DNA of 48,328 nt. It comes from Candidatus Berkelbacteria bacterium (lineage in GTDB: Bacteria > Patescibacteriota > UBA1384 > XYA2-FULL-43-10 > 1-14-0-10-43-13). The stretch is taken from NCBI GenBank assembly GCA_037143235.1, contig JBAWZC010000006.1:1-48328 (forward strand), read 5' to 3'. The translations under genes and the position numbers were made by a program. Within the stretch, counting starts at the first letter, position 1, and the number at the start of each line of letters is the position of its first letter. A model generated the notes under the pieces. That model saw nothing but the letters and a program-made list of their open reading frames with translations. It searched no databases and had not been told where the DNA came from. Of the stretch, positions 10,301-36,251 are shown piece after piece.

Positions 10301-13300
10301 AAGATCCAGAAGTATTGGGAACCTCTTGCCATACTGCCGCACCTGGTGTGTCATCCACACAGATCCATGCCTGTCCAGTTGATGGTATATACCATTGACT
10401 TTTGCCAGCAGTGTAAGGAGTTTTGTTCGTTTCCGCAGGAAAGTATCTCCTCACAGCATAATCAGTGCCTCCATAAGTTGAAGCTGATAAGTCGTAAAAT
10501 ACTGTCCCATCTCCAGAAACTACCGTTCCAGTCGCACCGTTGTATCCGACAGTAGTTTGCGTTGCCCAACCATTCGATGTGATAACCACGGAAGCATTAC
10601 CAGAACCAACAACTGTTATCATGGCCTTTTGCCCATCATCACTTATGCTTGAATATGAAAAATAGTTGATTCTTCCAATTTCTTCCGTAAACGACCCTCC
10701 ACTGTTAGAAGAATATTGATTCCCCCACATGACATATTGACCGTTCGCAGAGCTTGATATATTACATGTTTGTTGCCGGTACCCATGCCATGGGTCATCG
10801 GTAGCGACCGATGTCCATGATGTACCACCGTTGGTAGATTTTTTTAGCGTCGTGATGCCTGTACCGTCGGAATAAACGGCCGCATACAATATCTGCCCAT
10901 CGTCCGATAAGGTCGCTGCCGAACCTCGTGTGACACCGAGCGCGCTATTGAATGTCCATGAACCACCTGAATCAACAGAGAGGTAAACCCCCTGCGCACC
11001 ACTCGAGCCATCCCGCACGGCAATCATTTTTGTGCCACCGCCCGATACGCCTGCATCCTGCCACGCTGTCTCGGTTTTGGACCGAGTCCATGAAGTGCCA
11101 GAGTTTGTTGAGACGTAGATACCGTTGGTTGAGTCAACGACGACAACCGTCGCGCCAGAGTCCGAACAGTGAATCGTTTTCGCCGAAGCGAAGGAATTGC
11201 CGATAGAAAGGTTGGTCCACGAAACGCCGAAATTAGTTGACTTCTGAATCTCACCACTAGTGGAAGTACCAGAGTAAATAACTTGGCCATCCGAAGAAGT
11301 TGCAAGACCATATGCAAGTCCGCCCACAGGTGACACTGGTATCCATCTTATCGGAGCACTAGTGCTACTATCATCAAATGCATTTGGGAGTCTGGTTGCC
11401 GATATATTGTTGTTGAAACTACCACTTGCGCCAGCCCCTCCACCATCCACCGTCATATTGTAGAAATCATAGCCCGCGCCAGTACCGCCACTATTAATAG
11501 TTCTATCAGGGAATGAACCATTAAAATTGACCGTGCTTGTCCCCTTGGTAAATTCACCGCCAGTATTATTCCAACTACCGCCAATATTTAGGGTGTAGCT
11601 TCCCGCGTTTAATTGGCCAGCTGCCAAATTGATATCACCATCGTCATTTAGGTTATTAGCCAGAGTGATGGTGTCGGTGTAGCCAGAGTTAACGGAAAGC
11701 GACTTGATGTGATTTGTAAAGCTTGTGTCAAGCGTGGAAGCTTTAGTCGAGGTAGCATCGAAAATGATATCATCGGTATCAACTGGTGTAAGATTACCGG
11801 TCCAGTTGATAGCACAAGTCCAATTGTATTCATTTCCGGCACCACAAGTTGAAGTTGTGCCACGACCTGTCCAAATCCTAGTGCCGTAGGCCAAAAAACT
11901 GACAGCAATGGTGTGATCGGCGGTGACGCTGGTAAATGTGTATGGAGAACTCAAAGTGCCAGACAAAGAAACATTGTCGATTTTAATGTCGGAAATGTAA
12001 TAAAGACCAGATGGAGTAATGGTAAACGCCCGAGAAGCTCCATCGTCAACTGTTGCGGTTGGCGTTGGCGAGATAGTGCCGTTGCCGCCGACGACCGAGG
12101 AAGCAATGGTGTGAACGGCCAAAGTTGATGCATTAGCTGTGGTGCCATAAGCTGTTGCGACACTGTCACCGTTTTGGGCGGCCACCGAGTAAGTATAGCT
12201 AGTATTGGCGGTCAACCCCGAATTAGATATTGGCGAATTCCAAGTGCCGGCCGTTTGCCAAACCGCACTATCGCCCATGGTACCATTGGCCTGAATATAT
12301 TTGGTCGTGGAACTGTAAACTACCTTGATCGCAAATGTTGTGGAGGCAGGATTGGAATTGACATCGATCGTCACTGGGACGGTCGAGGAAGTTGGCGTAC
12401 CCAGAGTTGGAACAGCAGGCACATTGGCGAGGGTATATTTGGCGGCAGAGGATGATAGTGCAGTATTGGTCTTGTCACCGTTTCGGGCAATGACCTTGTA
12501 AGTGTGTTGAGTATTGACTGATAGGCCAGTGTCAACAAAACCAGAACCGCTGCCCCAGTTGGCGTAGGTGCGCCAGTGGTTGGCGTCATCACTGATCGAT
12601 TCGCAAGCATTGGTGGTGTAATTGAGGAAAGTCGAATCGCCATCGCAAGAGATAGCAAACTCTGTCCCAGCAGGATTGGAATTTACATTAATAATAGAAG
12701 TCAATGAAGTGGCTGAGGTGGCGTTCACTGTTGGAGCACCTGGAACATTGGCTAGAGTGTATTTTGGTGCTGAATATGCTGGAGCAGAATCACCAAAAGT
12801 ATTTGTCGCAATAACCTTGGCACAATATTGCGTATTAACAGACTTACTAGTAACAGCTTGTGTGATCGCATTGGCCGCTGTTGTAAAATCTGGTGTTCCT
12901 GAATAAGAAGCTGTTGAACAATCGGCTACCCCAGCAGCGACATAGACCTTGAAACCAGTCTCATCGGAAGAATTATCGGTCCAGCCAACAGTGAATCCAG
13001 TCGTTGACGGTAAAGTAATCGCCACGCCACTCGGAGCACTTGGCGCACTTCCAGGCAGTGTATCCACTCCCCCCTGCCAAGCCAATAATGGATAGGTCGT
13101 CCCACCGACCTCATCAAGCGTCCAGACATTTGGAAAATCCCATTCACCAGGGTCTGTACCAGCTGGAACAAAAGTTGCATGCTGCTTCATTTGTGCAGTG
13201 GTCTGAGGTGTAATGCCGGCAACGGGATCGGACACATTGCCGATGCTCGGCAAGTTATTAATAGTGTGGTCAAAATAGTTTGAGGCATAATTATTCTCGG

Positions 13301-15755
13301 AGGCATCGTAACCGATAAATCCGCCGATGCTACCACCACTCCCAACTACGGCACCTGTTGAATAACTATTGGTGATAGCATACCCATTATAACCGACAAA
13401 GCCGCCGATGTTACCACCACTCCCCGTTACAACACCAGTTGAATAACTGTTTGTGATAGTGCCGTAATTTTTACCGACAAAGCCGCCAAGGTTATACGAA
13501 TCCGCACTAACATTCTGGACACTGGCGACCGAATAACTGTATGTTGTGGTGCCGTAATTGTAACCGACAAGACCACCGGTAGCGTCATGATAATACTGAG
13601 TTACAATGCTGCCAGTTACATAGCTATTAGTCACGGTGCCTTCATTTAAACCGACAAGGCCACCGACCCCATAAGCACCTGTGCCAGCCGATATGCTAAT
13701 GTTAGTCAGACCAACATTTTTAATTACAGACGAAGAACTTGATACGTACCCGAACAAACCAATAGCACTAACGCCAGAACTATTAATAGTCAATTGATCA
13801 ATTGTTTTGCCGTTACCATCGAAATTACCATTAAAGCGGGTAACGCCATCAGAACCTATACCTATTGGTATAAACCCAGCACCGCCGTTCCAAGATGAAG
13901 TTAGGGATGCATCAATATCGTTGGCCAATTTATACGAAGCACCAAGATTTAACTGCATATTTTGAAGCTGGTTCAGAGTACAAATCAAATATGGATCACC
14001 GACAGTTCCAGTCCCGCCACAACTAATCTCCCAAGCCAAATGAGGATAACCAACACCCTCATTAATTGTCCAATCATTATTGGTAGTTGGCGGAAAAGTC
14101 CAGCCAGAAAAAGTCGATTTTGTCTTCATCTGCACGGTGGTGTCTTGCTCTATGCCTGTAACTGGGTCAGTCTTGTTGCCGACACTCTTCATATTGCTTT
14201 TGTCATGGTCAAAGTGGTTAGCAGTATATATTGTTGGATCACCGTCATATTCACCAGCCGAGTCATAACCGACAAAACCACCTTTTCTCGAAGTGCTACC
14301 ATTAAGAGTACCGGAAAAGTAAGAATGATCTTTGTCACCACTCCAGTTGTAACCAGCTATTCCTCCTAAACAACTATTGGGGGTATTGCCTGTCGTGATG
14401 TTGCCAGAAGCGTAAGAATTGGAAATAGTAGCACCAGAATAGCCCACTAATCCACCAGCCACACCCCAGTCTTGTGTGGAAGTCACATCGCCGGTGGCAT
14501 AAGAATTAGAAATAGTGCCATCAAACTCACCAGCCAATCCGCCTGCTTCGTTATTAGCGACGATATTACCTGTGGCGTAGGAGTCGGTAATCGTTCCACC
14601 ACTGCCATCACCGACTAAACCTCCCGCTCGGTCAGTTGAAGTAACATCTCTGATAGCCGAAGAATTGGAAATAGTTATAGTTCCGTCTGATTGTCCAACT
14701 AGTCCTCCAGACTTCCACGAATTATTACCCGAACTATTAATAGTAACGGCTGTATGGCAATTGGTAATCGTGACCGAGGAATTATAATTGATAGACCCTA
14801 TAAGGCCACCCGCGCCCCCACTGTTCCACCCATTAGAGGTAGCATTTATTGTCCCAGTCACAGTCACATTGGTGATCGAACCAGTCCAATATGATGTGCC
14901 CGAAACTAAACCTCCAACATTTATATTGTTACCAGGGTCGTCAATATCGATATTGGTCAGATTTAGATCTTTGATTTTGGATGTACTGCTGAGGTTAGAT
15001 AGTAGACCGCTAGAATCAAACCAAGAACCATGCTGGTAGAAGCCATTGATAGTTTTGTTATTGCCATCAAAATCATAGCCACCCAGGTAGAGTCTATCCC
15101 AACCATGGCCACTATTCCAATAGCGCATTTGGGAGGCATCGCCGTTGAAGGTGTCAGCCAATTTGATATTAGCATCAGTATTGGAAGTACCAGCCAAACC
15201 ATACAGATCATAGATGACATGATTGCCACTACCATCAACAGTCCAACGATGGAAGCCACCACTAGCGACATTAAATTGACCAGTTGTGCTGGTAACAGCA
15301 AAAGTGTAGGACGGATTGGAGATAAATAAACCCTGATATTCTTTGGAAAATAGATTAGTTGCGGCAAAGTTTCTAGCTTGAGTGATGGTGCCACTATAGT
15401 CGTTAGTAATAGTCAAACTTTTGACTGTGCCGGCAAAACCGCTATCAATGGTGGAATCGTTAGCCGAAGTGACGTCAAAAACCACATCATCGCCAGCAGC
15501 TGGCACGCCCGTCGGTGACCAAGAGAGCGGATCCGACCATGTTGTGTGCGTTGTGCCATTGCCATTCCAGGTCTTCGTCGCAGCATAGGCCTTGGGAATA
15601 TTGCTTAACAGACTCGTTGTCAAGAAACCGACGATCAAAAGTAAAGCCATCAAGCTTATTGTCATTTTTCTGAATAACAAAATATGCTTACTCATATTTG
15701 AGAAAACATTATTCTGACTAGTGTGAAGTCTTCGCTTAAACAGCTTGAAAATCAT
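4311..15755 (-). CDS. Giant (3814 aa) secreted, membrane-anchored surface/adhesin-like protein
   Basis: Signal peptide ending AYA; GLUG-like GGLVG repeats; fibronectin-III-like WTDNSxxE units; five InlB-B/Flg_new-like repeats; BNR/Asp-box (SxDxGxxW) and NHL (PxGIAIDxxGNVWV) propellers; C-terminal TM helices with carboxypeptidase-regulatory-like domains; SD GAGGAG. Confidence 0.88.
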   Translation of the reverse strand: MIFKLFKRRLHTSQNNVFSNMSKHILLFRKMTISLMALLLIVGFLTTSLLSNIPKAYAATKTWNGNGTTHTTWSDPLSWSPTGVPAAGDDVVFDVTSANDSTIDSGFAGTVKSLTITNDYSGTITQARNFAATNLFSKEYQGLFISNPSYTFAVTSTTGQFNVASGGFHRWTVDGSGNHVIYDLYGLAGTSNTDANIKLADTFNGDASQMRYWNSGHGWDRLYLGGYDFDGNNKTINGFYQHGSWFDSSGLLSNLSSTSKIKDLNLTNIDIDDPGNNINVGGLVSGTSYWTGSITNVTVTGTINATSNGWNSGGAGGLIGSINYNSSVTITNCHTAVTINSSGNNSWKSGGLVGQSDGTITISNSSAIRDVTSTDRAGGLVGDGSGGTITDSYATGNIVANNEAGGLAGEFDGTISNSYATGDVTSTQDWGVAGGLVGYSGATISNSYASGNITTGNTPNSCLGGIAGYNWSGDKDHSYFSGTLNGSTSRKGGFVGYDSAGEYDGDPTIYTANHFDHDKSNMKSVGNKTDPVTGIEQDTTVQMKTKSTFSGWTFPPTTNNDWTINEGVGYPHLAWEISCGGTGTVGDPYLICTLNQLQNMQLNLGASYKLANDIDASLTSSWNGGAGFIPIGIGSDGVTRFNGNFDGNGKTIDQLTINSSGVSAIGLFGYVSSSSSVIKNVGLTNISISAGTGAYGVGGLVGLNEGTVTNSYVTGSIVTQYYHDATGGLVGYNYGTTTYSYSVASVQNVSADSYNLGGFVGKNYGTITNSYSTGVVTGSGGNIGGFVGYNGYAITNSYSTGAVVGSGGSIGGFIGYDASENNYASNYFDHTINNLPSIGNVSDPVAGITPQTTAQMKQHATFVPAGTDPGEWDFPNVWTLDEVGGTTYPLLAWQGGVDTLPGSAPSAPSGVAITLPSTTGFTVGWTDNSSDETGFKVYVAAGVADCSTASYSGTPDFTTAANAITQAVTSKSVNTQYCAKVIATNTFGDSAPAYSAPKYTLANVPGAPTVNATSATSLTSIINVNSNPAGTEFAISCDGDSTFLNYTTNACESISDDANHWRTYANWGSGSGFVDTGLSVNTQHTYKVIARNGDKTNTALSSSAAKYTLANVPAVPTLGTPTSSTVPVTIDVNSNPASTTFAIKVVYSSTTKYIQANGTMGDSAVWQTAGTWNSPISNSGLTANTSYTYSVAAQNGDSVATAYGTTANASTLAVHTIASSVVGGNGTISPTPTATVDDGASRAFTITPSGLYYISDIKIDNVSLSGTLSSPYTFTSVTADHTIAVSFLAYGTRIWTGRGTTSTCGAGNEYNWTCAINWTGNLTPVDTDDIIFDATSTKASTLDTSFTNHIKSLSVNSGYTDTITLANNLNDDGDINLAAGQLNAGSYTLNIGGSWNNTGGEFTKGTSTVNFNGSFPDRTINSGGTGAGYDFYNMTVDGGGAGASGSFNNNISATRLPNAFDDSSTSAPIRWIPVSPVGGLAYGLATSSDGQVIYSGTSTSGEIQKSTNFGVSWTNLSIGNSFASAKTIHCSDSGATVVVVDSTNGIYVSTNSGTSWTRSKTETAWQDAGVSGGGTKMIAVRDGSSGAQGVYLSVDSGGSWTFNSALGVTRGSAATLSDDGQILYAAVYSDGTGITTLKKSTNGGTSWTSVATDDPWHGYRQQTCNISSSANGQYVMWGNQYSSNSGGSFTEEIGRINYFSYSSISDDGQKAMITVVGSGNASVVITSNGWATQTTVGYNGATGTVVSGDGTVFYDLSASTYGGTDYAVRRYFPAETNKTPYTAGKSQWYIPSTGQAWICVDDTPGAAVWQEVPNTSGSYFLTSAISATNNLTFSSGSFDASGYDLIAGNVIQSGGTFTAPTSGKSFIVNGGWNHSSGTFVPGTGTVTLAGDALIQGNTTFNNFTANTSGKTLTFAAASEQTISGTLNLLNSTAGTLALVSASPSSQWKIKPQETKAIANASGTVSVTDSNCTATDACEKDNTGSNSNITLVSGNTNWPYIFIPIVTTQSASSVTSNSAIGNGNITNIGGESNTVRGFEYATDTSSGHDCSTRGSISTAYDSGSYTAGAYTKGISGLVANTYYCARAYATNTAGSGYGSWVSFATLATHTLAYSAAAHGSIVGTTPQTIDYGGNGTQVTATPAANYHFVSWSDSVMTAARTDLNVTGDISVTATFAIDTYALTYSAGAHGSVVGISPQAVNYGSNGTQVTATPAANYHFVKWSDNNSTNPVRTDTNVTADITTTASFAIDTHTLTYSAEANGSIVGTSPQTVDYGSNGTQVTATPATNYHFVSWSDSVMTAARTDLNVTANITVTASFTLDAYALTYSAGAHGSIVGTSPQTVNYGSNGTQVTATPATGYHFVKWSDNNSTNPVRTDTNITAAITTIASFAIDTYTLTYSAGANGSIVGSTPQTVNHGSNGTQVTATPSANYHFVSWSDAYPTAARTDLNVTANISVTATFADNSTCTWSGGGADNNWSTAANWVSNIKPTAICDVVFDSTSGKNSIIDPSFADHVKSLSINTGYTGTITLARDLNVDNNVSLVAGTIDGSSSHFAFNVTGSWTNTGATFAINKPSINFNGIGEKTISTNNQAFYDVTIAGQGTPVVTGSTWVPSINSSNMTQLSNAGVVVGASVTGTSPWGVAIDPSGYVWVANRTTNNVSKFDNYGHLVGAYAVGSYPEGIAIDASGNVWVTNRDSNNVSKLSNLGVLLGTYGVGATPYGIAVDSLGNVWVANTGGSTVTKFSNSGIRLGVYNSGANPYGIAIDASDNVWVTNLNPNTVTKILNNGHLQATYSTGNHPAGIAIDANANVWVANYADNNVMKFDSAGSLLGTYNVGITPQGVAIDAAGNVWVANYASNTVAKLSSTGGLLGSYNVGSGPYSLGDMTGFIMQYFVQKNTGIGASYSLASDLSVVNNFTLSSGAFSAGLNNLTTNNFIQTGGRFTAPASGKNFDISGSFNHSFGVFLHNSGTVNLNGVSAQAVNGCTVFNNLNVISTSARTISFEARATVGVEGSFGAVGTSNNLINLISSVDGTPFILSKTNGVVLSDYLSIKDSTATGGAEWYAGSNSVNGGDNDGWIFGNAGGNAPPVTTSAIAAPSDVVIRSVTNNSFVVGWTDNSDNEVYFKIYLSNSPNGDCSRATYRAANSPDYTVTVNVHSRQVINRLPATQYCAKVVATNAIVSSAPAYSANRSTLANVPGAPVASALNPSQLSVKFTPNDNATAARYAVYDEATGKYVNQSDGQLHVLPDWQTYSVWGGTNGLIVSGLGADTRHSFKIKARNSDGIETVLSASAARYTFSSVPKLAIVKNGSSLKLVADTNGNSINSRYAFYVSTPGGDKYVRQSDGTLQDNIDWQSYADWGGDNGFVVNNLVKNTEYSFKVKAINSENIQTAYSDGVSADVNETSYQLNISGDENTIIDSDSIVNLVEGSDFSLTISAKDGYRVKEVFVDGRSMGRLTRYSLANIRANHTIVIVTEKNQLISSIADTITNILEKISIAPVNASTVIAVAAVASAAAIIPLVAISNMASFAGAASATQSAATSIWQFFVGLFGVKTALRRKKSGRIVEYGTNAPLPGVKVGIYQVIDVPGASAPVQKLLTSVYTDDQGYFGAVVEPGKYIIRIFKDKYLLAPPSALVIGTIFEIKTERDSLVMPNIQLTMDPKAAEANLRMLLIFKNIEIGLSIFSFLALVIGSIIIIDGLVREPSRLVYILAGVYALIWVFDLRFLLKKSPWGIVSDADTHQSLPLTMIRILDKAGSKLIRTAVSNKNGKYSVLLPKGQYTLLASHPGYDLARLGDLDTQHRNSIINRKIEMKRQ
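8371..9437 (-). repeat. Five tandem ~70-aa InlB-B-like coding repeats
   Basis: TYxLTYSAGAxGSIVGTxPQTVxYGSNGTQVTATPxxxYHFVxWSD...RTDxNVT five times, with high DNA identity. Confidence 0.9.
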
Positions 15756-26814: not shown

Positions 26815-26890
26815 TGGTACCCGCAGAAGGAATCGGACCTTCGGCCTCACGGACCGCAACCGTGCGCTCTATCCACTGAGCTATGCGGGC
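26815..26890 (-). tRNA. tRNA-Arg(GCG)
   Basis: GCCCGCA...TGCGGGT-ACCA; anticodon arm CACGG-TT-GCG-GT-CCGTG; T-loop reads TCCGATT. Confidence 0.9.
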
Positions 26891-27623: not shown

Positions 27624-27905
27624 CTAATCACAAACCTTCGCGCGCGACTTTTCTTTTCTTAGTGATTGATCTAGGTATTTTTTGATCAAAGATTGATATG
27701 GAATATCGAGCCTATTTGCTTCAACTTTTAGTTCGTCAATCAAAAATTGAGGCAATCGTATCGAAATCAACCGTAGTGTCGGCTTCAAATTTGGAAAATT
27801 TCCCGAACGCGCTTTTCGCCAATCCAAGAAATCAGCAGAATCATTTTCCTGCCAGAACTTTTCCTCTTCGTTCTTGTCTTCAAATTTTGGAATTTCTTTT
27901 TTCAT
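27624..27905 (-). CDS. brnA: BrnA/CopG-like antitoxin
   Basis: IPKFxxxxEExxFW...ISIRL...IPYQSLIK; overlaps the toxin gene. Confidence 0.85.
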   Translation of the reverse strand: MKKEIPKFEDKNEEEKFWQENDSADFLDWRKARSGNFPNLKPTLRLISIRLPQFLIDELKVEANRLDIPYQSLIKKYLDQSLRKEKSRAKVCD

Positions 27906-28209
27906 CGTGTTTAAAATTATTATAAATTTTTCTTTCTTTGTGGCTAGCCACTCTAGAAGAAATTACTCTTATCTTATCGCCACGAATCGTGAAAACTATA
28001 AATATTACTCTGCCTGTTTCGGTTTCTCCCAGTAAAAAATATCTAGCTTCAGATGTGCTATGATGATCATCTGGCAAAACAAGATTTGGATTGAAAAACA
28101 CTTCTTCTGATTCTGAGTTTGTAATTTTATGCTTAATCAAATTCTTCTCGATATTTCCGGCATCCCAGTCAAACTCAGTTAACTTTTCCAACTTTTTGTA
28201 TATATCCAT
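27880..28209 (-). CDS. brnT: BrnT family ribonuclease toxin
   Basis: FDWDxGNxxKNxxKH...EEVF...ExRY...IRVISSR...KERKIY. Confidence 0.9.
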   Translation of the reverse strand: MDIYKKLEKLTEFDWDAGNIEKNLIKHKITNSESEEVFFNPNLVLPDDHHSTSEARYFLLGETETGRVIFIVFTIRGDKIRVISSRVASHKERKIYNNFKHDEKRNSKI

Positions 28210-28289
28210 TATATACCAATATTTATTATTATGTCAAGAACATTATAACACTAATAACAAAAAATCCACCAATTTCACACTCTGCCCCT

Positions 28290-28335: not shown

Positions 28336-28379
28336 CAACAAAAAAGCCGCTCAAAATATTGAACGGTTTTTTTGTTTTG
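28336..28379. terminator. Bidirectional intrinsic terminator closing the accessory island
   Basis: CAAAAAAGCCGCTCAA-AATA-TTGAACGGTTTTTTTG, with A/U tracts on both sides. Confidence 0.75.
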
Positions 28380-28585: not shown

Positions 28586-28891
28586 TTACTCCTCCTTTTC
28601 GGCATCACACACATGCTCAGGGCAAAGCATGTCGGTGATGCAACCGTCGTCCACCAGCACGGCATGCGGGTCTTGTTTGACCCAGCCGGCTGGTATATGC
28701 CAGTCGCGAACAATGCCCCTCACTGGGCAACATGAGTAGCAACACTCGATCACGAATGTGCCACTGACAGTCTGTCTAGAGATCTTCTCTTCTAGACGTC
28801 TGACCTCTCGCCTTGCGGCATAGAGATCTTGGTGGTCTTGATCCCATTTTTCCAAAATAGAATCTTCCACCTGTTCCACCTGCTTCCCCAT
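28586..28891 (-). CDS. Hypothetical protein, coiled coil plus Cys/His-rich C-terminus
   Basis: Strong SD (AAGGAG...GAAGGAA); CCYSCC, H, C and CPEHVC residues; TAA stop followed by a hairpin. Confidence 0.7.
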   Translation of the reverse strand: MGKQVEQVEDSILEKWDQDHQDLYAARREVRRLEEKISRQTVSGTFVIECCYSCCPVRGIVRDWHIPAGWVKQDPHAVLVDDGCITDMLCPEHVCDAEKEE

Positions 28892-29009
28892 TTCCTTCTC
28901 CTCCTTTTTTTGTTTTTGCGCCCTAAAAGTTAAAATAATTTAACATTCCAGAGCACAAAGTGGAAAATACCATTTATTGACGATCCCTACAAGCCTACTA
29001 ACTGGATTT

Positions 29010-29068
29010 CCTTTTCGTCTTAATTTTCAAAGACTCATCAGCCCACCTTCGAACACTGGTGGGAAAGG
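29010..29068 (-). ncRNA. Hammerhead ribozyme, type III (copy A)
   Basis: Minus strand: CCUU-U^-CCCACC-AGUGUUCGAA-GGUGGG-CUGAUGA-GUCUU-UGAAAAUU-AAGAC-GAAA-AGG. Full catalytic core; stems I (6 bp), II (5 bp), III (4 bp); predicted cut at 29064/29063 after UUU. Confidence 0.85.
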
Positions 29069-29253
29069 TCCTCTCACCCTTCCGAAGAAGGGTGAGAGAC
29101 GGATATTTTGTATTCATCTCAAATACTTAAGGCTCTGCCGCCTTGCCTCACAACTACACTCCTCAATTTAATGACGAGCGGATGCCTTTTGGACATTACG
29201 CATGTGACTCGGATAGTTTTCTCGGATATCAGCCGTTTATTACCCAGCCGATT

Positions 29254-29568
29254 TTACTCGGCTGGGAATTCGATGTCTGCCTCGGAGAAACGCTGGACAT
29301 CTCCTCGGCGAATAGCCGTGATCTGGTAAGGGCCGACCCCTACCAGAATAAAGCCCGTCTGGGCATTGTCGCGCCACCACGGGACTCGCGCGATCAGTGC
29401 GTCGGCTTCCGTGCCGATCATTTTGAAATTTGACGGCACTGTTGCCGTCGTGAGCTGGTTAATCCAGCTCTCATGTTCCGGGCACCCGTAGGTGCTTTCT
29501 CCAACCCCCGTTAAGGAATCGGCTGGAACCGTATATAAACGGTTCCGGAACTTAATATTTCGGGTCAT
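29254..29568 (-). CDS. Hypothetical protein (104 aa)
   Basis: SD AAGGAGGG-TCATC-ATG; stop codon lies in a hairpin loop; no family recognised. Confidence 0.75.
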   Translation of the reverse strand: MTRNIKFRNRLYTVPADSLTGVGESTYGCPEHESWINQLTTATVPSNFKMIGTEADALIARVPWWRDNAQTGFILVGVGPYQITAIRRGDVQRFSEADIEFPAE

Positions 29569-29756
29569 GATGACCCTCCTTCTGTTCCATTCTTTTTTCT
29601 CTGGAACGATTTTTCGCCGTTTGGTCCGGCGTGGATAAGTTAAAATTTAACTCAACACATGCCAAACTAAAAACAAGTTTGAGACTGTTATGTATGAAAC
29701 AGAACAGTAGTAATAATTTTTGTCTTTGTTCGAATATTAAGTAAATATCGACTCTA

Positions 29757-29881
29757 AATCTGTCGGCAAGGGCGCAGGAGTGTTTTGTATAGTTTAGACA
29801 TGATACAAAACCGTCCTTGCTGACAGATTGAAGTGTCCATCACCACTCTCAAAAGAATGATGATGGACGGTAATTTGGCGT
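29757..29881 (-). other. Double long-hairpin structured RNA downstream of the 448-aa gene
   Basis: GTCCATCATCATTC/GAGTGGTGATGGAC hairpin, ACTTC linker, then AATCTGTCAGCAAGGACG/CGCCCTTGCCGACAGATT hairpin. Confidence 0.6.
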
Positions 29882-31228
29882 TTAGCTCAATCCTTTGAAC
29901 TTCGCCTGAAGCTGCCGCATAGCAGCCTCCAGATCTTCTATTGGCTTCGGATCTTCCAGGTCCTCTGCTTCTGCCACCATTTCTTCGATGACAGATTCAC
30001 GCCAGCGGAGATTCATGTTTTGGTATCCGAACTTTGGGTATACCAAGAACTCCAAAACCCCACCGGCGCATATAACAGTTCGCACCACTACAGCCTCTCG
30101 GTTCTCGCAGTGGGCTGTGGGGTCGCCGTAGCAGTTGACATCTGCCAGACGGCCCCAGTCTTGTATTTGAGTTCCATCTTTGTTCGCTACGCTCAAGTAG
30201 CTGAAAGACGGAACATAGCCTAACTCCATGCCAGCAACTGTCTGAATCTCGTCAAGACGTCTGGAGTAGAGCAGGTTTAAATTTTCGTCGAGGCCCATCG
30301 CGCCATTTAGCGCTCCGAGCTCTCTTTCTATCTCCCGAACAGTCTCCAACTGCTGGGCCGTCACACCATTAACCGGCAAGTGCATCACGCGCAGCCAGTC
30401 AATGGCGAGCTCGTCAGGTTGAACGAGGCACCAACCGATCATCCCGTCACTCTTGTAGAGAGGGATTGTGCTGAAGTCTCTCTTGCGGCGGGTACCGTCG
30501 GGTTGAACAACCCAGGCGTCGCCGTGATTTGACGCCCCTCCACGACGGTGCCACGCCGTGAAGTTGAAGAGGCCACCTTTTTCTTCGGCTTCCCGCCAAA
30601 GAGCAGTCGCTTTTTCCCAGGCGTCTCTCACCGATGAACAGATGTGTCCGTACTTGAGCAAATCATCCGTTCCGTCCTCGATTTTGGATATATCTTCGTT
30701 ATCGACGTAGCCAAAATAGTTCCCAGCTTCCGCAAAAATGGCTACCGCTGGGTGTTCCAACACGGCGTTCGCCCACTTGCCTGCCTCGTCAACCCATGCT
30801 TGACGGTTTTTCTCAATTAGTCCGTCAAAGTGAGCTTTGACCTCAGCAAATTTCTCCGCCGAATCAAGCATCACTTTTAGGGCCGGAACAGTGTACGTTC
30901 CATGCATAGCTCCGCCATCAACACGGACAAGCTCGGTGTGAAAAAGCCACATCCCGCCCTCATAGCTACGGTTGCTCGGGTAAGCAATCTGCCACACGCC
31001 TTTACTGCCCATTTTGGCATGAGCGGCATAGTCCGAATCCGGTTCCTTGCAGGTCCGGAATCCGTCGTCACTTTCCCACGAAGCCCCGACGGTGTGCCCA
31101 CCGAAGAACCATACATCCTCGCGAATGTTGTAGGTGCCTGGTTGAAATCCGGCAATCGCCAGAACTTCTTCGAGGCTAAATATTGGCGCTTGCCAATCGG
31201 CTGGTACTGGCAAAATTTTTTCTTCCAT
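29882..31228 (-). CDS. Hypothetical protein (448 aa)
   Basis: Long ORF with SD GGAGGTG; no family recognised. Confidence 0.8.
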   Translation of the reverse strand: MEEKILPVPADWQAPIFSLEEVLAIAGFQPGTYNIREDVWFFGGHTVGASWESDDGFRTCKEPDSDYAAHAKMGSKGVWQIAYPSNRSYEGGMWLFHTELVRVDGGAMHGTYTVPALKVMLDSAEKFAEVKAHFDGLIEKNRQAWVDEAGKWANAVLEHPAVAIFAEAGNYFGYVDNEDISKIEDGTDDLLKYGHICSSVRDAWEKATALWREAEEKGGLFNFTAWHRRGGASNHGDAWVVQPDGTRRKRDFSTIPLYKSDGMIGWCLVQPDELAIDWLRVMHLPVNGVTAQQLETVREIERELGALNGAMGLDENLNLLYSRRLDEIQTVAGMELGYVPSFSYLSVANKDGTQIQDWGRLADVNCYGDPTAHCENREAVVVRTVICAGGVLEFLVYPKFGYQNMNLRWRESVIEEMVAEAEDLEDPKPIEDLEAAMRQLQAKFKGLS

Positions 31229-31360
31229 ACTTCACCTCCATACGCTCCGTCTCATGGACATAATGCGTTTAGTGAAGATTGGAATTTTAAAAATAAAACT
31301 CTAAATCTTAACTAAAAAGATTGAGAGGCACGACCGTCATGGTGGTGCCTCCTGGGATGA

Positions 31361-31936
31361 TTATTCGCTTGCCATCCTGACAAGCAACTCGGCTAACGCC
31401 CTCACTGTGGGGCGTTCAGAGACTGGCTCACCTCTTTCAAGGTGATGCACTGATCCCCGATAAACACCGTCCGAGCCGAGAATCGGAACGGTGTCTTGGG
31501 TGCCAGCATAGTCGGACCATACCTCGGCAATCACCGAGAGTCCGACTTTCTGGCAAAAATCATGCCATTCTGGCAAACGATCAAGATCGCCGGCCAGAAT
31601 GATAACATGGGTAGCTGAGGCACAAATTGCCTCATTTTCAACGCTCGGGATGCCACCAATATCCACGAGCGTCAGCGAAAGTGTACAATTTCGTACAGAG
31701 TCAGCTATTCTCTGCACAAATTCGGGAGTGAACTTGGCCTTGTAGGCCGCTTTGCAAGCGGCAGCCAAGCTTGGGTCCTAATTCACTGTTTCCTGGAACC
31801 AGGACCCTTCACCGTCGGGGCACGCCGTAATTACATACGGGTACGGCGCCCCCGGAATCATTTTGATTGCTTGCTTTAATCCTTCACGCAAGCAACTTTT
31901 TCCGGACCTTGGTGGTCCGGCAAGAATTACTTTCAT
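31361..31936 (-). pseudogene. Csx3-associated P-loop NTPase interrupted by an in-frame TAG at codon 53 (31780-31778)
   Basis: From ATG 31936: MKVILAGPPRSGKS (Walker A)...ACPDGEGSWFQETVN*DPSLAAACK...LVDIGG (Walker B-like); SD AAAGGGGG; frame continuous with the 135-aa ORF. Confidence 0.8.
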
Positions 31937-32029
31937 AATTCCCCCTTTCCGCCATTTGGTCTGGCGTAGTCAGCTCCGTCAATCAATGAAGACCCAGCCA
32001 ACTATGCAACACCAAATATCACCATCTTT

Positions 32030-32063
32030 CCCTCTCCTTTCCAAGGAGAGGCTAGGTGAGGTG
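32030..32063. repeat. CCTCTCCTT-N-AAGGAGAGG palindromic repeat (same family as those around the DUF559 gene)
   Basis: CCCTCTCCTTTCCAAGGAGAGGCTAGGTGAGG resembles 38599-38634 and 38682-38715. Confidence 0.7.
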
Positions 32064-32071
32064 AAATTTTC

Positions 32072-32124
32072 CCTTTTCGTCTTAATTTTCAAAGACTCAT
32101 CAGCCCCGATGTATCGGGGGAAGG
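32072..32124 (-). ncRNA. Hammerhead ribozyme, type III (copy B)
   Basis: Minus strand: CCUU-C^-CCCCGA-UACA-UCGGGG-CUGAUGA-GUCUU-UGAAAAUU-AAGAC-GAAA-AGG. 35 nt identical to copy A; stem I differs in sequence but is fully paired; predicted cut at 32120/32119 after UUC. Confidence 0.88.
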
Positions 32125-32305
32125 TTGAAGCGCATCGAGTGAAATAAATCACTCATTGATGCGCTTCCGGATGTTTGGCTATTTTATCGCACAGCCAAGA
32201 GTGTGCGTCAGCAAAAAATTTTAACGAGTCGCTGATGAACTCGGCCTTCTCGGCATGGATGGTTTACTCGGGGACTCCATCGACCCTCAAATTTAACCGC
32301 CGATA

Positions 32306-32647
32306 TTACTCGGCAGCAGCGACATCGGTCGCCAGGATAATCTGTCCGACGGTGAACGCACCGCCGTGGCAGATCGAGACAACATACCCGGCCAGCTTGG
32401 GGTCGAACACCCCAACGGCCGAATACAAATGTCCCACACCATGCGCAATTGCGCAGGCGGCAGGGAGGGAAGCAGGTCCGTTCAGAAGGACTAACTCCCC
32501 GCCCTGGAGGTGGTTTTCTGCCAACGCCTTAACGGCGTCAGCGACGATTGCATCATTTTGCGCCGGCTCGCCAAAGCCGATGCGCAGTAGAGTGGCCGAA
32601 ACGCCGGCGGCGACTGCATTCTCGGCAGTAATTGTGTAAGTGGCCAT
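32306..32647 (-). CDS. csx3: Csx3/Crn3-like cyclic oligoadenylate ring nuclease
   Basis: LVLLNGPASLP...AHGVGHLYSAVGVFDPKL.GYVVSICH matches my recollection of Csx3 (His pair, DP(R/K)L, distal His); perfect SD TAAGGAGGT before ATG 32647. Confidence 0.82.
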   Translation of the reverse strand: MATYTITAENAVAAGVSATLLRIGFGEPAQNDAIVADAVKALAENHLQGGELVLLNGPASLPAACAIAHGVGHLYSAVGVFDPKLAGYVVSICHGGAFTVGQIILATDVAAAE

Positions 32648-32838
32648 GATGACCTCCTTACCAGTCACTCACTTATTGTATCGAGTGACTGTTCTGGGTT
32701 GGGTATTTAAGGTATTTACCCCCATTCGGAATAAAAGGACTATTAGAGAAGGCATTTTACAAAAAGGGTGATTTATACAACATCTTATATTCTCTGAGAG
32801 ACAAAAACTTCATTGAAACAATCGAGAAAAACAAAAAA

Positions 32839-33435
32839 ATGTCATTTAAAGCCAATGATCCTTTTGTAATAAAAGACTACCTGATAGATCAAGCTCAAAA
32901 GTATCGTGATGCCGAAAACATATTTAGCTCTGTTCTACCCTCTCTCTCAAATATGTTTAAGATGACCACCGAAAAGCCAATTGTCAGAGTTCTGGAAGGT
33001 TTTGAAGGTATCAAAGAACTCTACGAAGATACTTTGAGAGAAAAGGCACCTATTGTGGCTTTTCTGGAAGGGGCCGAATCAGACAAGAGAGTGTGGCGCT
33101 GGCTCAGAGATCAGTATGTCGAAAAACGAAAAAAGGCAAATATCTTTGCCCGTGTTATCGTCTCGAAAGAGATCAACGATGGAGATATCAATGAATACAC
33201 AGAAAAAGACAAGTACGAACTTCGGGAAACACGGATTGTGAACAAAAAAATATTCCCAAGCAAGCTTGAGATTCAAATATACGGCAATAAAGTCTCCTTT
33301 GCCAACTACAACCAAAACGACGTCCTAGTCGGCGTAATCATAGATAACATAAACATTGCGGAAAGTATGAGGGGACTATTTGAGTTGGCATGGATAGCCG
33401 CAGGAAAAAATGCGGCAGTCACGCGATGTGTTTGA
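32839..33435 (+). CDS. TrmB-like transcription regulator, apparently 5'-truncated
   Basis: KPxVRVLEGFEGIKELYEDTL...EIQIYGNKVS...IAESMRGLFELAW effector domain. The frame stays open upstream to 32689, encoding HTH remnants (KGDLYNILYSL) without an ATG. Confidence 0.75.
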   Translation: MSFKANDPFVIKDYLIDQAQKYRDAENIFSSVLPSLSNMFKMTTEKPIVRVLEGFEGIKELYEDTLREKAPIVAFLEGAESDKRVWRWLRDQYVEKRKKANIFARVIVSKEINDGDINEYTEKDKYELRETRIVNKKIFPSKLEIQIYGNKVSFANYNQNDVLVGVIIDNINIAESMRGLFELAWIAAGKNAAVTRCV

Positions 33436-34752
33436 TTACATCTGCTTGTACTCGTCTAGCTTAAAATCACGATGAAATTTCCAGGTGTGCGCTCCGAGTC
33501 TTTGTTTTTCGCCGATATAATGAAACAAAAAGATCAAATATGGGTTCTTAAACATAAGTATCTTCTTTTCTGGTATTCCATTAGCGATAAGATATTCTCG
33601 CGCTTTCTCGCTTTGGACAAAAAATCGCCCTCCCTCCATTGAGATGTGACCTTGGAAAGACACTCCACCACCCCTATCGTTATCTTTCAATAACGAGCTA
33701 GAGACTTTTGCTTCTTCGGAAATCATCTGAATTGGCTTGAAAAAATAAACATCCCAAACAGGAGTTGAATGTATCGCGTAGTCAGAATCTTCGTATGTTT
33801 CCCTCAAGGGCTCAGCGCTAAGGGGCCAGTTATGAACTGTACCAAACTCATCTTGGTATAAATATTCTGGGTCATTTCGATGTACGTCTCGCCAATCATA
33901 TGCTTCTTTGGCGGTCTTGAATTGCACTCCGGGAACATATCCTGTGTATTGGGGATTAAACTGCTCGACAGTTCCATAAATATTATCATGATGCCATTTT
34001 TTAATCCCTCTTTCAGAGAAAGTTCCCTTTAAACTTGCGGGGCTATAAGCTTTGTGACGGGAATCTGTCGAAACCAACTCTTTTTGACTTATTATCGCTC
34101 CGCTTTTAAATATTCCAGGAACATTCTCGATCGGCAAACCATGCACCCAAAATATCGGCCTTTCGCGGGCATCTTCAATACGCGTATCCATCTCCTCGGC
34201 CATCATCTGGTGAATGATTTCAAGTCCAACTCTCAAATCCTCTTTATCGAGCTCTTGGTATATTCTTTCATGGGCAATGTTCTTCGCATACTGCGAAAGA
34301 CCTTGGTGCAATCCACCAAAGCTTTGGGACATTTGCTCTACAATTTCTAGGCTACCCTTTTCTTCAAAAAATTTCTCGATTGCTCTCTCAATGAACTGGC
34401 TTCTGGAGAATTCCTGTTGATCTCCACTTTTCGGTATTATCGCAACTAATTTATCAACATTAATTCTCTCACCACGAGAGCAAGCCCCCTGAAATGTGTT
34501 TCGCCGTATTTGTTGTGAACCTGGAATTGCCTCGGGATGAATTTCAATTGTATAATTATCATTAAAATATTTTACAATCCAATCTACCAAGTCACTCAGC
34601 GAAGCCTCTATCTCCACCTCGTGAGCACAATAATATTCCTGGGCAGAAGCATCATTTTCAATTCCTAGGTTTACAAAAACAATATCCTCCAGCCGTCGAG
34701 ACTCTGCGAAGTTATTTTGTTCATCTAAATCTTGTTTTAGTATCTCTGGCAC
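33436..34752 (-). CDS. Hypothetical protein, possible ADP-ribosyltransferase-like domain
   Basis: 438-aa ORF; WVHGLPIENVPGIFKSGAIIS resembles the HxxxxxNxxxIxxxGxxxS first motif of DarT/ART folds. Confidence 0.6.
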   Translation of the reverse strand: MPEILKQDLDEQNNFAESRRLEDIVFVNLGIENDASAQEYYCAHEVEIEASLSDLVDWIVKYFNDNYTIEIHPEAIPGSQQIRRNTFQGACSRGERINVDKLVAIIPKSGDQQEFSRSQFIERAIEKFFEEKGSLEIVEQMSQSFGGLHQGLSQYAKNIAHERIYQELDKEDLRVGLEIIHQMMAEEMDTRIEDARERPIFWVHGLPIENVPGIFKSGAIISQKELVSTDSRHKAYSPASLKGTFSERGIKKWHHDNIYGTVEQFNPQYTGYVPGVQFKTAKEAYDWRDVHRNDPEYLYQDEFGTVHNWPLSAEPLRETYEDSDYAIHSTPVWDVYFFKPIQMISEEAKVSSSLLKDNDRGGGVSFQGHISMEGGRFFVQSEKAREYLIANGIPEKKILMFKNPYLIFLFHYIGEKQRLGAHTWKFHRDFKLDEYKQM

Positions 34753-34790
34753 ATCGATTCTTTCATATTAAGTATCGGAAAATATAGCAA

Positions 34791-36251
34791 TTAAGCAGCC
34801 TTTATTCCATCCAATAAAACATTGATTTTATCTTCTTCCAAAGCTTGGGACTGTTTGACTATATTTTTCATACTCATGCCTTCGGGTCTTACCACAACAT
34901 ACAGATGCTCCAAGACAGCAAGTTTTTTTCCATTATTATCTTCGACTTCGACGAAATAGTCATAACGGTCGGCAAAATTAAAATTGGCATCTTCTAGTGT
35001 CTCAATCATCTCTAGCTTGTCTGGAAAATATCTCGGGGTCTCATTTTCTTCATTTTGTTCAGTCGGGTTTCCGGTATCTTTTGATGGCGCGTCAACAATC
35101 GCCCCAAAAGAAGTTCTCTGTCCGGTTTTAAGTTGTGCTTGCTGATATTCGCGGATAGCCTTGCCATAACCTCCAAAATCACGATCTGGCATCTCAATGA
35201 CAACGATGCCACCCGGTCTGACATTGTCATAAATATTTTTTAGCGTCTTCATTTGACCTTCGTGGTCACCGGCAAATCCGAAAGTATGCCACATCATGAT
35301 AGCAACATCGGCTTTTTGGGGACCGAAACTTTTATCGTAATCTTCGCTATCAATATCGAAAAAACTACCCTGTTGTAGTCTAATATTTTTTCGAAGGTCG
35401 CCCAAAGTATTCACTTTCGGCAAAACATTTGATACCTCAAAAGCCTTTCGTGCTGATTCGGCAAGTTTATCTGGTCGTTTGTGCGTAAAACCATCCCAAA
35501 ATAATTCTGTTCTCTCGTCAACCTGGTCAAGCATCCTCTTGGAAATATCAATACAATTTACCCGATGCCCCAAGGCAGCCAGAGGGATTGCGAACCTGCC
35601 TTCGCCTGTCCCAAGATCGAAAATCGTAAGTTGCTTATGATCCTCTCCTCTTCCAGACAAAGTAGGCGGTAACGCTAGTTCCTTCAGTAAATATTCGAGA
35701 CTTACAGTAGTGTCGGTCGTCAGTCCTTCGTAATCACGAAGATTGAAGTCTGGATTGTCATATAGATTTTTTAATCGTTGGGAAATTATTTCCTGGGCAT
35801 AGAGACCGCCATTAAGTTCCTGATTCCCCGGTTGCGCTGGCTCGCGCAAGAAATCATCAATTATGAGCTGAGCGTCCATGAAACCCTGAAGAGTTGGAGG
35901 ATATGAAAGCAGATTCGCCAACTCTAGATTAACGGAATTCAGGCTACCTGCTGCGAGGTCTACTTTCCCTTCATTGAAATATCCAATCTTCTCGGCGATT
36001 TGTCTCATAATCGCTTTCTCAATCAAGTCCGCCTCGAGAGAGCCATCCTGAAACTGGAGCATGGCAGCAATATGATCGGCTACTTTTTCTGATAATCTCA
36101 TGGTCTCCTGATACATATCCTTGAATTCAGGATCTCGAGAATGTGGAATACTAGAGGAGTCTGGTGATGCAAAACATTTTTCTATTTCACCACAAGAATC
36201 GTCTACTTTAAAAGAGTTTGATAAATTTTGGGTTGGTATTTCGTTCAACAT
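34791..36251 (-). CDS. Class I SAM-dependent methyltransferase with long N-terminal extension
   Basis: FDLGTGEGR motif I, CIDISKRML, VRPGGIVVIE. Confidence 0.85.
   Translation of the reverse strand: MLNEIPTQNLSNSFKVDDSCGEIEKCFASPDSSSIPHSRDPEFKDMYQETMRLSEKVADHIAAMLQFQDGSLEADLIEKAIMRQIAEKIGYFNEGKVDLAAGSLNSVNLELANLLSYPPTLQGFMDAQLIIDDFLREPAQPGNQELNGGLYAQEIISQRLKNLYDNPDFNLRDYEGLTTDTTVSLEYLLKELALPPTLSGRGEDHKQLTIFDLGTGEGRFAIPLAALGHRVNCIDISKRMLDQVDERTELFWDGFTHKRPDKLAESARKAFEVSNVLPKVNTLGDLRKNIRLQQGSFFDIDSEDYDKSFGPQKADVAIMMWHTFGFAGDHEGQMKTLKNIYDNVRPGGIVVIEMPDRDFGGYGKAIREYQQAQLKTGQRTSFGAIVDAPSKDTGNPTEQNEENETPRYFPDKLEMIETLEDANFNFADRYDYFVEVEDNNGKKLAVLEHLYVVVRPEGMSMKNIVKQSQALEEDKINVLLDGIKAA

Follow-up and report, generated by a model that had tools for sequence, protein, structure and literature searches.

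Since 2011 it has been known that hammerhead ribozymes can flank genes in foreign DNA. In that year Perreault et al. (PMC3088659) described prophage clusters in which hammerheads on the same strand lie around one gene or a short block of variable genes, many of them unannotated, such as the triple hammerhead arrangement around ardA in Agrobacterium tumefaciens. Three of the clustered prophage arrangements cleaved in vitro, and it was proposed in the same paper that long transcripts are cut to gene-length mRNAs in this way. A review from 2019 (PMC6765202) discusses the processing of polycistronic mRNA and calls the bacterial purpose of hammerheads unresolved. In retrozymes and viroid-like RNAs (PMC4918200) type III hammerheads are present as direct repeats that bracket a releasable RNA, with 5'-OH and 2',3'-cyclic phosphate ends. 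Here we describe two hammerheads, copies A and B, which lie on the minus strand of a window of 48,328 nt (the whole stretch of DNA analyzed; contig JBAWZC010000006.1, positions 1 to 48,328, assembly GCA_037143235.1) from a Candidatus Berkelbacteria bacterium. They are located in an island of accessory genes in the order csx3, hammerhead B, AAA gene, 448-aa open reading frame (ORF), 104-aa ORF, hammerhead A, 101-aa ORF. We consider it likely that both are authentic type III hammerheads of a phage type and that they co-transcriptionally process a polycistronic mRNA of the island.

The window pair adds a member to this already described gene-flanking arrangement. As in the prophage clusters, the two copies bracket genes of the same strand, here three ORFs, at a distance of 3,062 nt from each other, and again the surrounding DNA is foreign. 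Unlike the clusters, the window copies belong to a genome of 0.84 Mb, and their cargo consists of a Csx3/AAA gene pair and orphan genes. With retrozymes and viroid-like RNAs the window shares the layout of type III direct repeats. However, the unit in the window is 3 kb long, protein-coding and bacterial, with no sign of a retroelement, and no RtcB was found. A search of the literature returned no paper linking hammerheads with Patescibacteria, although the supplements of Perreault et al. may already list the subfamily described below; the terms "hammerhead" and "Csx3" occurred together only in two unrelated papers.

Hammerhead B is located at 32068..32128 and hammerhead A at 29006..29072, both on the minus strand and both identified by reading of the sequence, sub-threshold matches to the Rfam family RF00008, a covariance model of relatives (R1, see below) and minimum free energy (MFE) folds. 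Read on the minus strand, copy A is CCUU-U↓CCCACC-AGUGUUCGAA-GGUGGG-CUGAUGA-GUCUU-UGAAAAUU-AAGAC-GAAA-AGG and copy B is CCUU-C↓CCCCGA-UACA-UCGGGG-CUGAUGA-GUCUU-UGAAAAUU-AAGAC-GAAA-AGG, where the arrow marks the predicted cleavage site. This site is UUU in copy A, with the cut predicted between U29064 and C29063, and UUC in copy B, with the cut predicted between C32120 and C32119. Stem III (4 bp) is CCUU/AAGG in both copies. The core and stem II (GUCUU/AAGAC, 5 bp, loop UGAAAAUU) are also the same. Stem I measures 6 bp in both and is CCCACC/GGUGGG with loop AGUGUUCGAA in copy A and CCCCGA/UCGGGG with loop UACA in copy B. The three differences between these helices are all compensatory (A-U/C-G at 1.4-2.4, C-G/G-C at 1.5-2.5 and C-G/A-U at 1.6-2.6, copy A given first). 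The conserved core positions C3 U4 G5 A6 N7 G8 A9 and G12 A13 A14 are unchanged in both copies, the pairs A15.1-U16.1, G10.1-C11.1 and C1.1-G2.1 are present, and the residue H17 is U (copy A) or C (copy B). Defects in the core or in the pairs next to it are the criteria by which hammerhead candidates were rejected in Perreault et al. 2011 (PMC3088659). According to the reading, the folds and the R1 alignment the topology is type III in both cases: the 5' and the 3' end both lie in stem III, and loops cap stems I and II. Folded in isolation, A and B each adopt the three-way hammerhead junction as MFE structure, and copy A still does so in a context of 116 nt.

A preliminary description of this DNA had claimed two complete minus-strand hammerhead cores with 35 identical nt at 29010-29044 and 32072-32106, a stem I that diverges in sequence and is nevertheless perfectly paired, legal NUH sites, 5'-OH ends at 29063 and 32119, and a position of both copies on the sense strand between genes. 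Reading of both sites bore out the cores, the NUH sites and the pairing of stem I. The 35 identical nt fall within a direct repeat of 38 nt (29007-29044 and 32069-32106, 97% identical, spacing 3062 nt) detected by a repeat search, a recount on the sequence arrived at the same end positions, and the ORF map places both copies in intergenic regions on the same strand as the flanking ORFs.

We then assessed whether the motif could have arisen by chance. Both strands of the whole genome of 842,647 b were searched with a generic type III descriptor, which required CUGAUGA and GAAA, U16.1, an H17 other than G and three stems with a minimum of 4 bp. It matched just these two sites, and the exact 29-nt core likewise occurs only twice in the genome. 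Since the descriptor found no match in 40 genomes simulated with a first-order Markov model of the same composition, a chance origin is excluded.

Comparison with Rfam, which the preliminary description had proposed as a check, gave a divided result. The copies have the features of type III members of RF00008 (Hammerhead_3, clan CL00010), namely the CUGAUGA...GAAA core, the A15.1-U16.1 pair, the H17 site, looped stems I and II and an open stem III, and loop 2 of the window copies resembles the Rfam consensus. On the other hand, the sites are UUC and UUU where GUC is usual, and next to the 5' strand of stem III there is a hairpin of its own. With permissive thresholds RF00008 does match both copies, B over its full length with 31.1 bits (E 3.3e-5) and A with 17.5 bits and a misaligned long loop 1. 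Both scores are below the gathering score of 48.5 bits, which is a curation device and not a biochemical criterion. A scan of the whole window at gathering thresholds accordingly returned no hammerhead and three tRNA matches only; ARAGORN predicts four tRNA genes in the window. By the Rfam cut-off the copies are not members because of the short stem III, the A15.2-U16.2 pair and unusual loops. Relatives of the same subfamily score in a similar way (L124 41.8, L125 45.3 and L126 41.5 bits; L numbers denote the loci compared). A viral type III locus with the same module, L032, reaches 52.6 bits and is the only one of twelve viral loci scanned to pass, so that sub-threshold scores are normal for this subfamily.

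For a more specific comparison, 12 type III relatives, without the window, were used to build the covariance model R1. Copy B scored 68.6 bits and copy A 63.1 bits, both over positions 1-60 of 60, and they are the sole matches in the window as well as in the genome. Type I decoys and loci of other topology that carry the same module scored 28-44 bits, therefore roughly 20-25 bits derive from correctly placed stems I and III. In the alignment of 14 type III sequences 96.2% of the cells are paired and compensatory changes occur in 10 of the 15 pairs. We counted 61 double-change cells compared to 20.9 +/- 3.3 in shuffled alignments, and none of 500 shuffles reached 61; controls with a slid register pair at 34-50% only. 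Taken as sequence evidence, the scores and the covariation support that copies A and B are real members of the hammerhead class.

The wider subfamily was collected with the pattern CTGATGAGTCNNTGAAAANNNNGACGAAA, which describes a degenerate core, stem II and loop 2 with 23 specified bases and is present in at least 119 IMG/VR viral contigs. The following counts refer to the matches listed. 127 viral matches and the 2 window copies make up 129 sequences, which were reduced to 113 instances by removal of duplicates. Of these, 94 are type I and 10 type III (8 viral and the 2 window copies); the remaining 9 are unresolved, being truncated or mismatched. The shared module can be written CUGAUGA-GUCNN-UGAAAAUU-NNGAC-GAAA, where the invariance of loop 2 UGAAAAUU is built into the search pattern. 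Stem II occurs as GUCUU/AAGAC (n=81), GUCGC/GCGAC (n=15) and GUCGU/ACGAC (n=14). The type I copies are mostly found immediately 3' of stop codons. In hammerheads a tertiary contact of stem I or loop 1 with loop 2 gives fast cleavage at physiological Mg2+; in the subfamily, 91 of 93 type I members have A as the base just 5' of the 3' strand of stem I, and the loop 1 sequences of the two window copies end in A as well. The window copies thus resemble the phage type I hammerheads (IMG/VR L005-L123) in the identical or covarying core and stem II and in this A. In comparison to the window, however, the phage type I hammerheads are circularly permuted and stem I is open, so nearly the whole ribozyme stays on the upstream fragment. 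In the type III arrangement of the window the ribozyme would stay on the downstream fragment, and a separate hairpin would cap the upstream one. Several of the twelve viral loci scanned also hold RAGATH RNAs, hatchet ribozymes and tRNA arrays: RAGATH-14, RAGATH-6, RAGATH-1 hammerhead and hatchet ribozymes and long tRNA arrays were seen at L008, L018, L055 and L069 (IMG/VR). At L046 the hammerhead module overlaps the 3' end of a tRNA gene.

Within the phylum of the host, whose sampled genomes are mostly 0.5-1.5 Mb in size, the module was found in 2 of 400 other genomes, both times as type III. A narrower pattern with a stem III starting AGG retrieved the genome record L126 and the metagenome contigs L127 and L128. 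L128 is type I. L126 (UUC site, stem III of 8 bp) and L127 are both type III; L127 has CCUU-U as in copy A, whereas its stem II covaries and its stem I is another one. Four type III hammerheads of the same subfamily occur singly. The first is located at L124 1476-1535 (plus strand), about 440 nt upstream of three tRNA genes. The second, L125 1495-1551 (minus strand), lies between an IF-2-like and a diadenylate-cyclase-like gene, labels which derive from ORF reading without family search. The others are at L126 4162-4219 (plus strand) and at L127 3919-3979 (minus strand), after an operon of JAB, ThiF and 353-aa genes. At all four loci the hammerhead follows GC-rich, foreign-looking ORFs of small genomes or metagenome contigs.

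Directly 5' of each hammerhead a stable hairpin is predicted. For B it is located at 32127..32167 on the minus strand (5' flank -25.5 kcal/mol, z -5.2) and for A at 29070..29099 on the minus strand, where the fold gives 13 bp and a UUCG loop (-26.4 kcal/mol, z -4.5). The gap between hairpin and predicted cleavage site is 7 nt for B and 4-6 nt for A. When considering all type III members, a stable hairpin ending 2-7 nt before the cleavage site is present in 12 of 14, both window copies included, with z scores of the 5' flanks from -1.8 to -5.7. Only L032 and L069 deviate; L018, L024 and L122 are close kin and should be counted as one lineage. Such a hairpin could, in structural terms, stack on the short stem III. 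Its location just before the cut fits a role in making protected 3' ends. A further hairpin of 9 bp is predicted between hammerhead B and the start of the AAA gene (32031..32051, minus strand; fold in 141-nt context, z -5.8).

The similarity between the two units extends upstream to the stop codons of the preceding genes. A block GCCGAG-UAA-UAUCGGC covers the csx3 stop codon (32299..32314, minus strand; repeat D12), and its paralogue GCCGAG-UAA-AAUCGGC covers the stop codon of the 104-aa ORF (29247..29262, minus strand). Each would fold into a small hairpin whose loop contains the stop codon. The two blocks share 15 of 16 positions and lie collinear with the hammerhead repeat. Exact copies exist at these two genomic sites only, and no comparable match was found among 300 random segment pairs. 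Both ORFs end in A-E-stop. Between stop block and ribozyme 127 aligned positions are 39% identical, compared to 35 of 35 in the core. The 3' untranslated regions measure 186 nt (csx3/B) and 190 nt (104-aa/A), and from the predicted cut to the next start codon the distance is 183 nt (B) and 172 nt (A). The 15/16 match of the stop blocks suggests that a shared 3' module of about 250 nt, ending in a hammerhead, is attached to two unrelated genes. Judged by their sequences the two hammerhead units are old paralogues: a spacer at 39% next to a core at 35/35, the compensatory changes in stem I and the matching lengths argue for long-standing selection on the RNA and not for a recent copy. The locus thereby offers a natural experiment, in which paralogous units of near-random similarity have kept an identical core and changed stem I only by compensatory pairs.

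The island has a GC content of 0.47-0.54 compared to about 0.40 in its surroundings and is, by sequence criteria, foreign and horizontally acquired. Its first gene (32306..32668, minus strand) encodes a csx3-like protein of 120 aa (Pfam Cas_csx3 26.5 bits, cut-off 21; PADLOC Csx3 (CARF) 50 bits, E 6e-14). It is followed by a Csx3-associated AAA/P-loop gene of 191 codons (31361..31936, minus strand), which matches positions 108-285 of the PADLOC model Csx3-AAA with 200.7 bits. Hammerhead B lies within the 370-nt spacer between both genes. PADLOC represents Csx3 and the AAA partner by a single fused model, and in the genome G138 an open frame of 288 aa suggests such a fusion. Neither Cas10 (Csm1, Cmr2) nor Cas1 was found in the genome, which is 96% complete, and csx3 and the AAA gene were therefore classed as an orphan accessory module. 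The remaining genes between the hammerheads are the 448-aa orphan ORF (29882..31228, minus strand) and the 104-aa ORF (29254..29568, minus strand), the last gene before hammerhead A. The latter lies between this gene and the cysteine-rich 101-aa ORF (28586..28891, minus strand), which has a strong Shine-Dalgarno sequence and is followed by a terminator-like site at 28347-28366 in a consensus-level scan.

No family above the curated cut-off of Pfam, NCBIfam, PHROGs or PADLOC was obtained for the 448-, 104-, 101-, 198- and 438-aa proteins. The 448-aa protein had 2 matches among 8000 scored candidates, one of them itself, as well as no usable match in the protein atlas and no viral pattern match. 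Seven island proteins scanned contained no PHROG family, and no integrase was seen among them. For the AAA protein we found 1127 homologues, the best 72-88% identical and intact. In a search for viral relatives, 54 pattern matches were obtained with the AAA alignment, none of which was confirmed by tblastn. Codon 53 of the otherwise intact and highly conserved AAA gene is an in-frame TAG (31778-31780), where homologues have Q, H, A, T or S and the three closest aligned Q, Q and H. Recoding of the TAG is unlikely, given that none of the 43 tRNAs of the genome has a CUA anticodon and the nearest homologues carry Q. As these have Q at codon 53, a CAG-to-TAG change is the simple reading, and the TAG is probably a recent nonsense change of this kind, or else a variant of the strain or of the assembly. 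A search of 161 other genomes of the class did not return the AAA gene. Among 400 others of the phylum 7 have it, and in none of the seven was a hammerhead found within about 1.5 kb of the gene. One of the genomes compared, G309, has a csx3-AAA spacer of 160 nt without a ribozyme, and its alignment with the window spacer was uninformative.

From the intact core, the covariation, the R1 scores and the sense, intergenic placement in a run of same-strand genes, self-cutting of the mRNA into units, as inferred in the preliminary description, is the best-supported reading of the locus, and it agrees with the proposal of Perreault et al. (PMC3088659) for clustered prophage hammerheads. We propose that the csx3, AAA, 448-aa, 104-aa and 101-aa genes would be transcribed together from the minus strand and that each ribozyme would fold in the transcript and cleave after H17 in vivo, between C32120 and C32119 and between U29064 and C29063. 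The RNA on the upstream side would then have a stable hairpin near its 3' end, with 4-7 nt and a 2',3'-cyclic phosphate after it, and the RNA on the downstream side would start with a 5'-OH and carry the folded ribozyme about 175-185 nt ahead of the next start codon. In this manner the polycistronic RNA would be split into up to three units (csx3; AAA-448-104; 101), and the stability and translation of the three could be uncoupled, the processing having a stabilizing or insulating effect. Because hammerhead B lies between csx3 and the AAA gene, which are fused elsewhere, self-cleavage would uncouple the halves of one functional pair. By its sequence copy B (UUC) is the more credible catalyst, and copy A (UUU) may be slow.

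Several observations weigh against this proposal. In a context of 141 nt the MFE fold of copy B lacks stem III. Stem III comprises just 4 bp, and its 15.2-16.2 pair is A-U where C-G is usual. The Rfam scores of both copies (31.1 and 17.5 bits) stay under the gathering score of 48.5 bits. Part of the R1 score and of the covariation is built in, since a window-derived pattern served to gather the relatives, the presence of stems decided which of them entered the type III set and the alignment was fitted to the model. UUU is a kinetically poor triplet. Among the type I relatives listed it occurs in none of 94 and UUC in 1 of 94; among the type III relatives UUU is found in 1 of 12 (L127) and UUC in L126. 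The caveat of the preliminary description, which had pointed to the 4-bp stem III and the weak UUU, stands. A passage of a review (PMC3138052) names UUC, and not UUU, as an active site. The 448-aa and 104-aa genes could be separated by a terminator-like site at 29811-29826; the promoter and terminator scans are of consensus level only. Finally, the island may be decaying, in view of the TAG within the AAA frame and of a tRNA set in which no CUA anticodon was found.

This last point leads to the alternative which survives best, namely that the hammerheads are passenger relics: competent now or formerly, they would have arrived with cassettes derived from phages or mobile elements and would have no role in the host, any cleavage being incidental in a decaying island. 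The foreign GC content of the island (0.47-0.54 vs about 0.40) would agree with such an origin. So would the scattered occurrence of the AAA gene (not found in the 161 class genomes searched, found in 7 of 400 of the phylum), its TAG in a genome without suppressor tRNA, the orphaned state of csx3 and AAA with no Cas10 or Cas1 found, and the lack of a hammerhead within about 1.5 kb at the AAA loci of the 7 other genomes. Yet the identical 35-nt core and the compensatory stem I at a spacer identity of about 39% point to continued selection on the RNA, and besides the TAG the AAA protein is undamaged and 88% identical to intact homologues. We therefore regard mere passengers as unlikely.

A more far-reaching version of the paralogous 3' units is that they represent a portable 3'-end module, composed of a stop-codon hairpin, a spacer of about 190 nt, a capping hairpin and a type III hammerhead, which moves together with, or is joined to, foreign GC-rich ORFs in variable islands of very small genomes similar to those of the candidate phyla radiation, and that two bracketing copies excise an RNA of 3,057 nt, which a rebuilt hammerhead closes to a circular mRNA. 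Candidate examples of the module are the window, with two, and L124-L127. If true, the excised circle would represent a protein-coding equivalent of retrozyme circles in prokaryotes. As a whole we consider this idea very improbable.

Also when taken by itself, excision with ligation is a very improbable account. Here double cleavage would free the 3,057-nt RNA from 32119 to 29064, which could become a circle, or the outer fragments could be joined as in splicing. Because the copies share the CCUU/AAGG strands of stem III and differ in stem I, a rebuilt hammerhead could ligate the excised ends into a coding circle. The layout of type III direct repeats is that of retrozymes and viroids (PMC4918200), and the same idea was raised for the prophage clusters by Perreault et al. 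(PMC3088659), who sought such products and, in the experiments described there, detected none. Moreover, the search for an RtcB ligase in the 96%-complete genome was negative, and a stem III of 4 bp is a weak ligation scaffold. The hammerheads of L124-L127 are single and without partner, thus paired copies are not required for the class. That the 38-nt repeat has a function or origin at the DNA level only, as a scar of recombination or insertion or as a binding site for a protein, with a coincidental fold, is hardly credible, even though two direct repeats 3,062 nt apart bracket foreign genes and the locus next to the TrmB-like/methyltransferase pair is variable among relatives: the repeat coincides exactly with the hammerhead core, the non-repeated flanks supply a perfectly paired stem I as well as stem III, the module recurs in more than 100 viral contigs in which unrelated flanks always complete a hammerhead, and the generic descriptor had 0 matches in 40 simulated genomes.

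Processing of the island mRNA by the two hammerheads would leave the picture of what hammerheads are unchanged. The locus adds a case from a phylum whose genomes are very small, and it provides a compact system for testing what hammerheads do.

In the surroundings of the island we noticed some further features. Just downstream a BrnT/BrnA toxin-antitoxin pair is located at 27624-28209 on the minus strand, with a promoter of perfect TTGACA-18-TATAAT type at 28208-28237 (minus strand), and a tRNA-Arg gene (26815-26890) lies within about 2 kb of the island. A gene for a TrmB-like regulator and an S-adenosylmethionine-dependent methyltransferase gene are adjacent to each other in the window, in L126 and in the family relative G517 (L146). 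L126 21-2093 corresponds to window 32839-36251, with the TrmB-like and methyltransferase homologues beside the L126 island. The DNA beyond the TrmB-like regulator differs in the window, L126 and G517, two of which have hammerhead islands; in G517 neither a hammerhead nor further synteny was found within the 19 kb compared. The site looks like a variable hot spot. L126 also contains an ISL3-like transposase according to ORF reading without family search. Elsewhere in the window, positions 4311-15755 on the minus strand contain an ORF of 3,814 aa, in a genome of 0.84 Mb.

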